This document shows, piece by piece, positions 30,741 through 40,600 of a DNA stretch of 64,000 nucleotides; position 1 is the stretch's first letter; the number at the start of each line of letters is the position of its first letter. The translations under genes were made by a program, and so were the position numbers. Under the pieces are notes generated by a model. The model did not search any database and was not told where the DNA came from. It saw only the letters and a program-made list of their open reading frames with translations. This DNA is from Eledone cirrhosa. Its lineage: Eukaryota. The stretch spans positions 118,048,001 through 118,112,000 of the forward strand of contig OZ024740.1 in NCBI GenBank assembly GCA_964016885.1, read 5' to 3'.

Positions 30741-30877
30741 TATGTTTTTATCGTCTCCGTTGAACCGGTACGTACTCACGCTCTATGCAAATTAGTCTGC
30801 CCACTACTAATTTTCATAGAAAAAGCATATAACGATATGTGCTTTTACGATTCTCTAGAAAGGCCGGAAGATAGGTA

Positions 30878-30922
30878 AATATTGCTGATGAGTTGTAACA
30901 ACAACGAAACTAGTTCAATATT
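30878..30922 (+). ncRNA. Minimal type I hammerhead ribozyme
   Basis: AATATTG-CTGATGA-GTTGT(aaca)ACAAC-GAAA-CTAG-TT/CAATATT. Confidence 0.85.
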
Positions 30923-31343
30923 CCTTGTCTGGCTTTCTGGAGAATAGAGGAAAGGTGTTTCCTCAAAAACCAGTATGACTCTAAAAACCGGTTTGTCTGT
31001 GTGTTTACATACAGAATAGCTGGACACTCACAGTAAAGTGACCAGTGAAAAACTCTGTACATCTACATATGTATACGTGTGTGTATTCATATGCATACTA
31101 GTATTTCAGTATACATATGTGGATGTACATTTTTAACTTAATTGTTTAAGCGTCAGTCATACAAAAGTGAGTTACAACCGAAACGAAATTTAATTTCGTT
31201 TCGTTATTTGTTTTTATCCTCTCCGTTGAACCGGTACGTACTCACGCTCTATGCAAATTAGTCTGCCCACTACTAATTTTCATAGAAAAAGCATATAACG
31301 ATATGTGCTTTTACGATTCTCTAGAAAGGCCGGAAGATAGGTA

Positions 31344-31388
31344 AATATTGCTGATGAGTTGTAACAACAACGAAACTAGTTCAATATT
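31344..31388 (+). ncRNA. Minimal type I hammerhead ribozyme (second tandem copy)
   Basis: Identical to 30878-30922. Confidence 0.85.
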
Positions 31389-34810: not shown

Positions 34811-37642
34811 ATATATATATATATATATATATATATATATATATATATATATATATATATGTACGATTGGATTCACCGAACATTTATTATAAGGCTTGGT
34901 GTGTTTGTAAACAAACATCCCGATTTAAGCCGTACAGTGTCTCGCAACCATCGTTTCTCATTTGATCAACACTGACAAAGGAACGCTTTACTAGTTTCAA
35001 ACTTATTAGCTATCGTCAGCAACATATATCTTCCTGCCAGATGGTTTAACGTCTGAAAGCATATACTTTCCTTATGCATATTAACGGCTGAGCAGCCTAA
35101 TTTGCATATCGAGTGTGTTAATCGGCCGGGGTACCGCAAACGATAAAGGGAAAAAATGAAACGAAGTTTCATTTCTCACTCTTAATACGGCTGTTACTTA
35201 AATATAAGTATGTATACGTACATACATATATGTATACAGATGTACAGTAGTATGTATATATATACATACATGCACATAGATATATATATATGTACGTATG
35301 GATTCACCGAACATTTATTATAATGCCCGGTGTGTTTGTAAACAAACATCCCGAAATAAGCCGTACAGTGTTTAGCAACCATCGTTACTCATTTGTTCAA
35401 CACTGTCAAAGGAACGCTTTACTAGTTTCAAGCTTATTAGCTATCGTCAGCAACGTATACCTTCCTGTCAGATTGTTGAACGTCTGAAACCATATACTTT
35501 CTTTATGCATATTAACGTCTTAGCAGCAAAATTTGCATATCGAGTAAGATAATCAGCTGGCGTACCGAAAACTATAAACGGAAAAAAATGAAACAAAAGT
35601 TCATCTCTCACTCTTAGTACGGCTGTTACTTAAATATAAGTATGTATACGTACATACATATATGTATAGAGACGTACACAAGTATGTATATATATACATT
35701 CATGCACATATATACATATATATGTACGTATGGATTCACCGAACATTTATCGTAATTCTCGGTGTGTTTGTGAAAAACATCCCGAATTAAGCCGTACAGT
35801 GTCTAGCAACCATTGTTGCTCATTTGTTCAACACTGACAAAGGAAAGCTGTACTAGTTTCAAGCTTATTAACTATCGTCAGCAAGGTATACCGTCCTGCT
35901 AGATGGTTGAACGTCTGAAAGTATATACATTCCTCATGCATATTAACGTCTGAGTAGCCTAATTTGCATATCGAGTGAGTTAAACGGCCGGGGTACCGCC
36001 AACGATAAACGGAGAAGATGAAACGAAATTTCATTTCTCAATCTTAGTACGGCTGTTACTTAAATATAAGTATGTATACGTACATACATATATGCATACA
36101 GAAGTACAGTAGTATGTATATATATACTTACGTGCACATAAATATATATATATATATGTATATATATATATATATATACATGTATGTATATATATATATA
36201 TATATATATATAAATATATATATATATATATATATATATATATATATATATATATTTATATATATATATATATATATACATACATATATATATATATATA
36301 TATATATATATATATATATATATATATATATATATATATATATATATATATATATAATTTTATGTGCACGTATGTATATATATACATACTACTGTACTTC
36401 TGTATACATATATGTATGTACGTATACACACATATATTTAAGTAACAGCCGTACTAAGATTGAGAAATGTAATTTCGTTTCATCTTCTGCGTTTATCGTT
36501 GACGGTACCCCGGCCGTTTAACTCACTCGATATGCAAATTAGGCTACTCAGTCGTTAATATGCATGAGGAATGTACATATATATATATATATATATATAT
36601 ATATATATATATATATATATATATATATATATATATATATATATATATATATATATATATATACGTACGTTTGGATGGATTCACCGAACATTTATTATAC
36701 TGCTCGGTGTGTTTCTAAACGAACATCCCGAATTAAGCGGTACAATCTCTAGCAACCATCGTTGCTCATTTGTTCAACACTGACAAAGGAACGCTCTAGT
36801 AGTTTCAAGCTTATTAGCTATCGTCAGCAACGTATACCTTCCTACCAGATGGTTGAACGTCTGAAAGTATATACTTTCCTTATGCATATTAACTGCTGAG
36901 CAGCCTAATTTGCATATCGAGTGAGTTAATCGGCCGGGGTACCGAAAAACATAAACGGAAAAAATGAAACGAAATTTCATTTCTCACTCTTAGTACGGCT
37001 GTTACTTAAATATAAGTATATATACGTACATACATATATGTATACAGACGTACAGTAGTATGTATATATATACATACATGCACACATATATATATATATG
37101 TACGTATGGATTCACCGAACATTTAATATAATGCTCTGTGTGTTTGTAAACAAACATCCCGAATTAAGCGGTACAATCTCTAGCAACCATCGTTGCTCAT
37201 TTGTTCAACACTGACAAAGGAACGCTCTAGTAGTTTCAAGCTTATTAGCTATCGTCAGCAACGTATACCTTCCTACCAGATGGTTGAACGTCTGAAAGTA
37301 TATACTTTCCTTATGCATATTAACTGCTGAGCAGTCTAATTTGCATATCAAGTGAGTTAATCGGCCGGGGTACCGAAAAACATAAACGGAAAAAATGAAA
37401 CGAAATTTCATTTCTCACTCTTAGTACGGCTGTTACTTATAAAAAAGTATGTGTGCGTACACACATATATGTATACAAACGTACAGTCGTATGTATATAT
37501 ATACATACATGCACACATATATATGTACGTATGTATTCACCGAACATTTATTATAATGCTCGGTGTGTTTGTAAACAAAAATCCCGAATTAAGCCGTACA
37601 GTGTCTAGCAACCATCGTTGCTGATTTGTTAAACACTGACAA

Positions 37643-37699
37643 AGGAACGCTGTACTAGTTTCAAGCTTATTAGCTATCGTCAGCAACGTATACCTTCCT
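37643..37699 (-). ncRNA. Exemplar satellite hammerhead ribozyme (one of ~35)
   Basis: Minus strand: AGGA-aggtat-ACGTTG-CTGACGA-T-AGCT(aata)AGCT-T-GAAA-CTAG-TA/CAGCGT-TCCT. Predicted cleavage after GUA, between plus positions 37653 and 37652. Confidence 0.8.
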
Positions 37700-40600
37700 A
37701 CCAGATGGTTTAACGTCTGAAAGTATATACCTTCCTTATGCATATTTACGGCGGAGCAGCCTAATTTGCATATCTAGTGAGTTAATCGGCCGGGGTACCA
37801 AAACGATAAACGGAAAGATGAAACGAAATTTCATTTCTCACTCTTAGTACGGCTGGTACTTAAATATATGTATGTATACGTACATACATATATGTATAAC
37901 AGACGTACAGTAGTATGTATATATATACATACATGCACACATATATATATATATGTACGTATGGATTCACCGAACATTTATTATAATCCTCGATGTGTTT
38001 GTAAACAAACATCCCGAATTAAGCGGAACAATGTCTAGCAACCATCGTTGCTCATTTGTTCAATACTGACAAAGGAACGCTGTAGTAGTTTCAAGCTTAT
38101 TAGCTATCGTCAGCAACGTATACCTTCCTGCCAGATTGTTGAACGTCTGAAAGCATATACTTTCTTTATGCATATTAACGTCTTAGCAGCAACATTTGCA
38201 TATCGAGTAAGATAATCAGCCGGCATACCGGAAACGATAAACGGTAAAAATTAAACAAAATTTCATCTCTTACACTTAGTACGGCTGTTACTTAAATATA
38301 AGTATGTATACGTACATACATATATGTATACAGACGTACACTAGTATGTATATATATACATTCTTGCACACATATATATATATATATGTACGTATGGATT
38401 CACCGAACATTTATTATAATGCTCGGTGAGTTTGTAAACAAACATCCCGAATAAAGCCGTACGGTGTCTAGCAACGATCGTTGCTCATTTGTTCAACACT
38501 GACAAAGGAACGCTGTACTAGTTTCAAGCTTATTAGCTATCGTCAGCAACGAATACCCTGCTGCCAGATGGTTGAACATCTGAATATATATACTTTCCTT
38601 ATGCATATTAACGGCTCAGCAGCTTAATTTGCATATAGACTGAGTTAATCGGCCTGGGTACCGAAAACGATAAACGGAAAAAATGAATCGAGATTTCATA
38701 TCTCACTCTTTGTACGGCTGTTACTTTAATATAAGTAGGTATACGTACATACATATATGTATAACAGACGTACAGTCGTATGTGTATATATACATACATG
38801 CACACATATATATTTATGTACGTATGGATTCACCGAACATTTATTATTATACACGGTGTGTTTGTATACAAACATCCCGAATTAAGCCGTACAGTGTCTA
38901 GCAACCATCGTTGCTCATTTGTTCAACACTGACAAAGGAACACTGTACTAGTTTCAAGCTTATTAGCTATCGTCAGCAACGAATACCCTGCTGCCAGATG
39001 GTTGAACATCTTAAGTATATACTTTCCTTATGCATATTAACGGATGAGCAGCCTAATTTGCATATCTAGTGAGTTAATCGGCCGGGGTACCGAAAACGAT
39101 AAACGGAAAAAATGAAACGAAATTTCATTTCTCACTCTTAGTACGGGTGGTACTTAAATATATATATGTATACGTACATATATATATGTATACAGAAGTA
39201 CAGTAGTATGTATATATATACATACATTCACACATATACATATATATATATATATATGTACGTTTGGATTCACCGAACATTTATTATAAACCACGGTGTG
39301 TTTGTAAACAAACATCCCGAATTAAGCCGTACAGTGTCTACCAACCATCGGTGCTCATTTGTTCAACACTGACAAAGGAACGCTGTACTAGTTTCAAGCT
39401 TATTAGCTATCGTCAGCAACGAATACTCTGCTGCCAGATGGTTGAACATCTGAATATATATACTTTACTTATGCATATTAACGGCTGAGCAGCTTAATTT
39501 GCATATAGACTGAGTTAATCGGCCTGGGTACCGAAAACGATAAACGGAAAAAATGAAACGAAATTACATTTCTCACTTTTTGTACGGCTGTTACTTAAAT
39601 ATAAGTAGGTATACGTACATACATATATGTATAACAAACGTACAGTCGTATGTATATATATACATACATGCACACATATATATATATGTACGTATGGATT
39701 CACCGAACATTTATTATAAAGCACGGTGTGTTTGTATACAAACATCCCGAATTAAGCCGTACTGTGTCTCGAAACCATCGTTGATCATTTGTTCAACATT
39801 GACAAAGGAACGCTGTAGTAGTTTCAAGCTTATTAGCTATCGTCAGCAACGTATACCTTCCTACCAGATGGTTGAACGTCTGAAAGTATATACTTTCCTT
39901 ATGCATATTAACTGCTGAGCAGCCTAATTTGCATATCGAGTGAGTTAATCGGCCGGGGTACCGAAAAACATAAACGGAAAAAATGAAACGAAATTTCATT
40001 TCTCACTCTTAGTACGGCTGTTACTTAAATATAAGTATATATACGTACATACATATATGTATACAGACGTACAGTAGTATGTATATATATACATACATGC
40101 ACACATATATATATATATGTACGTATGGATTCACCGAACATTTAATATAATGCTCTGTGTGTTTGTAAACAAACATCCCGAATTAAGCGGTACAATCTCT
40201 AGCAACCATCGTTGCTCATTTGTTCAACACTGACAAAGGAACGCTCTAGTAGTTTCAAGCTTATTAGCTATCGTCAGCAACGTATACCTTCCTACCAGAT
40301 GGTTGAACGTCTGAAAGTATATACTTTCCTTATGCATATTAACTGCTGAGCAGTCTAATTTGCATATCAAGTGAGTTAATCGGCCGGGGTACCGAAAAAC
40401 ATAAACGGAAAAAATGAAACGAAATTTCATTTCTCACTCTTAGTACGGCTGTTACTTATAAAAAAGTATGTGTGCGTACACACATATATGTATACAAACG
40501 TACAGTCGTATGTATATATATACATACATGCACACATATATATGTACGTATGTATTCACCGAACATTTATTATAATGCTCGGTGTGTTTGTAAACAAAAA

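Follow-up and report, generated by a model that had tools for sequence, protein, structure and literature searches.

Hammerhead retrozyme units of Eledone cirrhosa retain a branched RNA fold and carry Penelope-type insertion ends

Retrozyme units and hammerhead ribozymes in the window

The analysed window of 64,000 nucleotides (E. cirrhosa contig OZ024740.1, positions 118,048,001 to 118,112,000; coordinates below are those of the window) contains tandem units of 466 bp on the plus strand and of 431 bp on the minus strand. By every feature testable here, these are two clades, A and B, of one retrozyme family without long terminal repeats (non-LTR), a class already described (PMC7229834; this and the other papers are cited from excerpts). 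The two clades share a predicted RNA fold, and their copies end in the manner of Penelope-like elements (PLEs).

The clade A insertion at 30743..31614 (+) consists of 1.87 units, is 5'-truncated and has its 3' end at the position named site 1 below, abutting (TA)n. A third clade A copy at 9853..10201 (+), also 5'-truncated, ends at site 2 in (TA)n and adjoins an inverted Penelope-like terminal segment at about 9240-9850. The clade B array at 32065..48279 (-) has 30 recognisable hammerhead cores, and its 3' end is site 1 in (TA)n. The identity of its units is about 90%, and other inserts interrupt it. A short inverted arm at 48287..48418 (+) lies head-to-head with this array, and a further clade B fragment of head-to-head form at 23282..23571 (+) ends at site 2 in (TA)n. 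The unit consensuses were determined to be 420-472 bp long and the arrays to reach 30.7 units. The GC content over the array is about 0.35 (below 45%), and over the arrays only low-complexity or repeat-derived stop-free frames were found.

Within the B array, at 36626-43613, a 3,019-bp block of 7 units is duplicated at 97% identity, some units being 100% identical; the duplication is either a recent unequal crossover or an assembly artefact. At 34370-34820 the (TA)n run of a B unit has taken up an unrelated inverted-repeat element; the unit thus brings a target of its own. Short inverted elements of this kind flank many loci (L012, L013, L037, L039).

Each unit of either clade carries one type I hammerhead, and the cores were found in consecutive units. 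The ribozyme of unit A is located at 30878..30922 (+), with a second copy at 31344-31388, and comprises stem I AATATTG/CAATATT (30878/30916), CUGAUGA, stem II GTTGT/ACAAC (30892/30901) with a G-C closure, GAAA and a short palindromic stem III. Judged by the consensus, the predicted cut follows GUU, at 30915/30916. These helix positions, and those of stem II GATGT/ACATC in the 9853 copy (9877/9886), agree with an initial annotation of this DNA. The perfect arm AGTGTCCAG of the initial annotation belongs to the 9853 copy; the 30743 unit has AGTGACCAG with one mismatch. An example clade B hammerhead at 37647..37689 (-) has stem I ACGTTG/CAGCGT, a GUA triplet and a U-U, not a G-C, at the base of stem II. 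Rfam Hammerhead_HH9 matched unit A at 30867-30938 with an E-value of 2.9e-7 and 37.7 bits, below the gathering score of 52; at the gathering score no ribozyme was detected in the window. No antisense hammerhead was seen, since the motif scan found cores on one unit strand only.

The host genome of 3.0 Gb is rich in (TA)n. A search pattern covering the ribozymes of both clades matched the genome exactly at 38,047 places, its reversed control at none; the clade A pattern gave 9,214 genome-wide matches. Overlapping duplicate loci and microsatellite-only hits were removed before counting. The 109 monomers left after de-duplication formed 10 clusters with at least two members, falling in two deep clades, and no third deep clade was seen among the sampled monomers. 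Searches with a variable-length stem II (97 and 87 matches) returned mostly indel mutants, and two singleton motifs (L074, L078), whose flanks were without the element, were dropped.

Shared helices of the two clades

Outside the ribozyme, the global alignment score of A and B was 308, compared with 138±12 for 300 dinucleotide shuffles (z = 14.8), which bears out the annotated collinearity of the A (+) and B (-) units. With the AT-rich arm removed, z was 11.9, and the reverse-complement control gave z = -0.5. When A and B were folded independently, the order of the helices was identical. A long-range helix pairs GTATGACT at 30973..30980 (+) with AGTCATAC at 31155..31162 (+), the latter lying within the 'tail' between the two insertion-end sites. 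The corresponding helix of the B unit is GTACGGCT/AGCCGTAC (37592-37599 with 37424-37431, -), and the two clades differ in it by two compensatory pairs, as the initial annotation had it. The GTGAG/CTCAC helix is indeed common to A and B, but its sequence is identical in both, hence it provides no A/B covariation; in subfamily B2 it shows a compensatory A-U to G-C change. At 31180..31217 (+) a conserved hairpin is followed by a T tract and site 2.

All 10 consensuses fold more stably than their shuffles (40 each), with z values from -5.6 to -11.0, and in 10 of 10 the fold of the ribozyme strand is more stable than that of the antisense strand. The predicted monomer is stably self-paired, with the ribozyme free to fold.

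Selection on the fold

A neutral null was constructed by redistributing the A-to-B substitutions at random in 60 simulations. The neutrally diverged B unit folds at -92±6 kcal/mol and the real B unit at -134.8 kcal/mol. The number of pairs shared by A and B was 48, compared with a null mean of 3.7 and a maximum of 19. Two further contrasts agreed on the energy, one of them only weakly on the shared pairs (22 vs a null maximum of 22).

Fixed mutations (between subfamily consensuses) and private mutations (in single copies) were then compared. In the pair tests the ribozyme and the AT-rich arm were excluded, and alignment columns within 2 positions of a gap (3 in the editing test below) were dropped; cluster c7, with 2 window units, was excluded from the fixed-versus-private, event-once and invariant-run analyses. 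Pairing was kept by 35 of 49 fixed and 57 of 216 private changes (p 8e-9), and by 21 of 34 fixed changes when repeated events were counted once (p 9e-5). Double changes made up 6/49 of the fixed and 2/216 of the private set. The ratio of the rates at paired and unpaired positions was 0.45 for fixed and 1.11 for private changes. One-sided losses of Watson-Crick pairs gave G-U and A-C in a ratio of 12:2 among fixed and 50:45 among private changes (p 0.022), and this bias indicates selection on the RNA strand, not on DNA palindromes. RNAalifold predicted 72 pairs for 17 real monomers, 20 of them with two-sided change. Outside the ribozyme two-sided change was found in 14 of 63 pairs, a count reached by 4 of 500 shuffles, and slid controls gave at most 4.

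Several points weigh against this reading. The number of double compensatory changes between the A and B consensuses in a sequence-only alignment was 7, compared with 4.0 in the null (p about 0.10), and in two other contrasts the p values were 0.18 and 0.38, so that 0 of 3 were significant. The structure in the 14/63-pair test was derived from the same alignment, and with only two deep clades the independent events are few. The support for selection rests on the retention of the fold and on the comparison of fixed with private changes. The annotated claim that the clades keep one fold through compensatory changes stands for the retained fold (48 shared pairs; 21/34 fixed changes) and lacks significance for the double compensatory count.

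Taken statistically, the monomer fold outside the ribozyme is selected on the ribozyme strand in the transposing lineages, and inserted copies decay neutrally. The family thus did not originate as a neutral satellite. The proposal that the whole monomer has been selected as a structured RNA accordingly holds for the lineages that spread and fails for the inserted copies, which mutate neutrally.

Insertion ends and Penelope-like elements

The element was present in 208 of the 211 loci used for end mapping. Two sites about 55-70 nt apart account for 289 of the 335 mapped 3' ends. Site 1, the preferred 3' end of inserted copies, lies at 31135..31145 (+) in unit A and would be the first start of reverse transcription. 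The ends at site 1 or site 2 abut (TA)n in 134 of 156 cases, and the 5' ends are scattered. In 99 head-to-head pairs, the two arms used different sites in 65 and the same site in 4, with an end elsewhere in 30; among the loci fetched once this rule had been set, the ratio of different to same was 31:1. According to the excerpts of the PLE papers, purified PLE protein cuts AT-rich DNA in both strands and initiates reverse transcription from two internal positions, resulting in a PLE-specific 'tail' (PMC11167929), and PLE insertions have an inverted truncated partner and (TA)n targets (PMC8557442).

In a co-resident PLE family, to which the remnant preceding the A dimer belongs, insertions are arranged like those of the retrozyme, with two ends, inverted arms and (TA)n; the tail is 48 nt long. 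In 22 of 25 loci the sense alignments of this family stop at one or other of two positions separated by 48 nt, of which the second coincides with the end of the query copy, and 6 of the 9 inverted arms reaching this region use the other position. Autonomous PLEs co-occur in the genome, as seen from 150 scored matches, a 777-aa open frame, a reverse transcriptase hit and clusters of reverse transcriptase and GIY-YIG. At L203:1501-3339 (minus), 613 aa of a 777-aa open PLE frame include reverse transcriptase and, at the C-terminus, GIY-YIG preceded by a Cys motif. This motif is of the Neptune/Nematis type described in the excerpt of PMC8557442, and the locus is a candidate autonomous partner.

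The 3' remnant of a PLE at 29889..30731 (+), with a GIY-YIG-type frame (29889-30293), a minimal hammerhead (30541-30575) and an end in (TA)n, lies just before the clade A dimer. It is a neighbour sharing the target and is not homologous to the retrozyme. The second Penelope-like terminal segment, at 9240-9850, is arranged head-to-head with two ends about 55-60 nt apart and holds a minimal hammerhead at 9505-9538 on the minus strand. Another GIY-YIG-like frame at 56858-57535 is followed by a hammerhead-like core at 57701-57728, and this region is probably a further PLE remnant.

A U6-type element upstream of the ribozyme

The TATGCAAATTAG block of unit A at 30784..30795 (+), with a second copy at 31250-31261, matches an element found upstream of the host U6, U6atac and RNase MRP genes. 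A TATA-like box follows at 30828..30833 (+), 43 nt from the ATG of the motif. In a B unit the block is located at 37761..37772 (-) and the TATA-like box within 37720-37730. The longest invariant run over nine consensuses is TATGCAAATT, which exceeds every ribozyme block; the chance occurrence of the motif was 30/60000 per shuffled unit. In the host, 5 of 5 scored promoters (three of U6, one each of U6atac and RNase MRP) have TATG(C/G)(A/T)AAT(T/G)AG at -77 to -79, TATA lying 46-48 nt further along, and the motif was found in 0 of 9 upstream regions of U1, U2 and RNase P. At the host spacing, transcription would start about 42 nt (B) or 54 nt (A) ahead of the cut, just upstream of the ribozyme.

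The evidence is not one-sided. The five host promoters were chosen by eye as intact, and 2 more U6 loci (L129, L130) and 5 more U6atac loci, which were treated as pseudogenes, had no motif there. The TATA-like box lies 42-43 nt from the motif in 8 consensuses, 4-5 bp short of the 46-48 of the host. Six of 8 consensuses have T5-T7 tracts close to site 2, which would stop RNA polymerase III (Pol III) before the full unit, and insertions run past them. A motif variant carrying three A>G changes, seen only at L231/L235 and L290 among the sampled loci, still gave these 2 sampled loci, including an insertion of 18 units. The block is moreover the 5' arm of a hairpin with 30807-30818, so that its conservation could be structural; in this hairpin only the partner arm varies much. 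That a captured U6-type promoter element drives transcription was given an even chance.

The A>G motif variant TATGCAAATTGG occurs in both clades (6 loci in A, 18 loci in B), apparently independently. In a set of host loci (L215:1430-1460; L101-L103; L131-L141), the RNase P RNA gene has the U1/U2-type upstream element AAATCAGT, not the motif of U6 and MRP, which suggests that it may be transcribed by RNA polymerase II (Pol II) in the manner of small nuclear RNA (snRNA) genes. The host U1 and U2 genes have a TATA-like box too, and several U2, U6 and RNase P genes are preceded by a TTACCTCCCTT-like motif at a distance of about 250-300 nt.

Form of the template

Arms longer than one unit were found in 88 of 193 cases. 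The head-to-head insertion L231 with L235 (G000:C1 ~30,831,600-30,840,900) contains 6 + 12 complete units in its two arms, all 18 of which are identical, as would result from rolling-circle copying; the units are 468 bp long, differ from the subfamily consensus at 12 positions, and the far end of the insertion is at site 2, as predicted. Divergence was 0.9% between the arms of one insertion and 2.7% between loci. The simplest reading of the 18 identical units is a single circular template, the alternatives being a long uncleaved multimer or homogenisation in the assembly.

Variants common to all units of one insertion (208 loci), which would have been present in the template, comprised 11 A>G and 3 T>C changes (p 0.057; 10:2 before loci were added). 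Single-copy mutations were symmetric at 138:152, and the two ratios differed with a Fisher p of 0.028. This gives a weak hint of adenosine-to-inosine (A-to-I) editing of the template RNA, and it is only suggestive.

Four sequencing runs of unrecorded kind all cover the unit and show its end-to-start joint; because tandem DNA gives the same joint, they were not used as evidence. The runs X4 and X6, labelled as two other organisms, have no more than 3 and 1 contigs, respectively, with near-identical A units. One 496-nt contig among these closes on itself; with the kind of run unrecorded, these observations were left uninterpreted.

Other features of the window

Two reading frames on the minus strand, at 1697-2569 and 3108-3845, resemble what we take to be the endonuclease and the zinc-knuckle ORF1 of a long interspersed element. 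A transfer-RNA-like Rfam match of 39.1 bits at 50742-50806 (minus) is possibly the head of a short interspersed element (SINE).

Comparison with known systems

Like the metazoan non-LTR retrozymes described in the excerpts of the class papers, the present family consists of non-coding units arranged in tandem, each with a single type I hammerhead; its GC is low, its predicted fold stable, its copies number tens of thousands, and PLEs co-occur with it. The U-U at the base of stem II in clade B is as described there for an axolotl ribozyme. The unit size is slightly larger than the approximately 170-400 nt of PMC7229834 and inside the 51-972 bp of a preprint (bioRxiv 10.64898/2026.07.22.740005). 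A covariation test, the tail and inverted-arm signature and a promoter are not among the features reported in the excerpts of these two sources, and a further paper, as excerpted, states that retrozymes seem to lack promoters (PMC7761336). Neither these features nor this family turned up in searches of the open-access literature; related repeats may be listed in the supplement of PMC7229834. To the known class the family adds a Penelope tail signature borne by a retrozyme, a two-armed multimer of identical units and the U6-type element.

The two 3' end sites, the inverted 5'-truncated partner, the partial tandems, the (TA)n or AT-rich target and the type I hammerhead are shared with PLEs (PMC11167929; PMC8557442). 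Unlike PLEs, the retrozyme is without an open reading frame, and its hammerhead is full-size, not of the minimal PLE type. Its tail of 55-70 nt is longer than those in the excerpts of the PLE papers (30-40 nt) and that of the co-resident family (48 nt). Newt satellite 2 and Schistosoma Sm-alpha are likewise hammerhead tandem repeats, and theirs carry a small-RNA-type promoter, the upstream unit driving the next; by the excerpted accounts the newt promoter is of snRNA type and read by Pol II, and that of Schistosoma is a Pol III promoter (PMC2220036; PMC6765202). The candidate element here matches the upstream motif of the host U6, U6atac and MRP genes, not that of U1 and U2.

Discussion

The sequence features are probably explained by a selfish retrozyme family without coding capacity, whose spread by way of an RNA intermediate relies on the reverse transcriptase and endonuclease of a PLE supplied in trans. 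The tandem unit would be transcribed on the hammerhead strand, probably aided by the U6-type element of the preceding unit. The type I hammerhead would cut the multimer to unit length and the unit would be circularised, as expected from the known class. A PLE protein would nick (TA)n on both strands and start reverse transcription at the two fixed internal sites about 55-70 nt apart, which would give the tandem, 5'-truncated and often head-to-head insertions whose architecture was observed. RNAs keeping the branched fold would propagate better, so that helices survive between subfamilies. Since one strand of the long-range helix, and likewise one of the GTGAG helix, lies between the start sites, recognition by the PLE enzyme is presumably the most likely reason for the fold. 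PLEs have been proposed as mobiliser in the excerpted retrozyme papers (PMC7229834; bioRxiv 10.64898/2026.07.22.740005), the first of which calls them 'a strong candidate'.

Some observations count against this mechanism. The sampling of loci was not random but followed ribozyme patterns and list order. Clade B 5' ends showed no excess at the cut (5 of 248), its stem II being closed by U-U. No similarity was found between the retrozyme and the terminal repeat of the neighbouring PLE family (25 loci), the only one compared, and any partner family is therefore putative; Xenopus retrozyme families differ here in having homology to a PLE terminal repeat, and in the excerpt of the same preprint 1 of 9 predicted Xenopus retrozymes cleaved in vitro (bioRxiv 10.64898/2026.07.22.740005).

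A more specific version, a minimal RNA-circle parasite with a captured host U6-type promoter, a PLE-mimicking two-site fold, rolling-circle reverse transcription from both target strands and some templates perhaps A-to-I edited, is offered tentatively, at somewhat less than an even chance. In it the promoter element would be kept by circular permutation, because new copies receive the upstream element only from a circle or by read-through. It is also possible, with lower probability, that PLE-driven mobility uses a linear, uncleaved read-through multimer in the manner of a SINE-like PLE parasite, circles being uninvolved. In the excerpt of PMC11167929 the main PLE substrate was unprocessed RNA and mutating the ribozyme left insertion unaffected, and the weak stem II of clade B with its lack of a 5'-end excess fits such a template. 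A homogeneous source array or assembly polishing could likewise yield the identical units. Against it, 18 identical units over both arms would mean that 13 or more ribozymes of a single transcript stayed uncleaved, the 5' ends of clade A show enrichment just past the cut (10 of 92 within 20 nt of it, p 0.006), and circles of the class were demonstrated in coral, mussel and axolotl (PMC7229834, excerpt).

Three further explanations are much less probable. A host-domesticated small RNA gene, with a U6-type promoter, a structured product and retrocopies across the genome, would let the fold serve a host function, and the host-type element upstream and the T tract downstream of a structured RNA are as expected for one; it is nevertheless very unlikely, as the many successive subfamilies, each with its own insertion burst, fit selfish turnover, and no Rfam family matched the units beyond the sub-threshold hammerhead and AT-repeat (microRNA) artefacts. 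For a viroid-like RNA that replicates from RNA to RNA and is repeatedly endogenised, the fold would serve replication. Its size in the viroid range, very stable branched fold (z -5.6 to -11), hammerhead and strand-specific tolerance of G-U recall Avsunviroidae viroids and hammerhead satellite RNAs (PMC6765202, excerpt). Unlike Avsunviroidae, the retrozyme is genome-encoded with the ribozyme in one polarity, tens of thousands of chromosomal copies have Penelope-type ends in keeping with spread by reverse transcription, and the ribozyme pattern had 0 exact matches in viral and metagenome contigs, a weak negative. This origin is thus highly improbable, and 'viroid-like', the term of the initial annotation, describes an analogy. 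A neutral DNA satellite, with inverted repeats kept symmetric by template switching or gene conversion at the DNA level, is largely refuted and has almost no probability left. AT-rich palindromes can fold whichever strand is taken, the private mutations behave neutrally and the 3,019-bp duplication is typical of unequal crossover, but the fixed changes favour G-U over A-C, the sense strand is the more stable throughout, the ribozyme core is intact in both clades, and fixed 3' ends stand with scattered 5' ends.

The transcription and the mobiliser of animal retrozymes are open questions stated in the excerpts of the literature (PMC7229834; PMC7761336), and the present family gives base-level predictions for both. 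For an in vitro PLE assay that already exists it names two start sites of reverse transcription, and for mutation a host promoter motif of 12 bp. The comparison of fixed with private changes indicates that selection on the RNA fold of a retroelement reaches well beyond the ribozyme. If true, the tentative scheme of a minimal RNA-circle parasite would answer how animal retrozymes are transcribed and mobilised.

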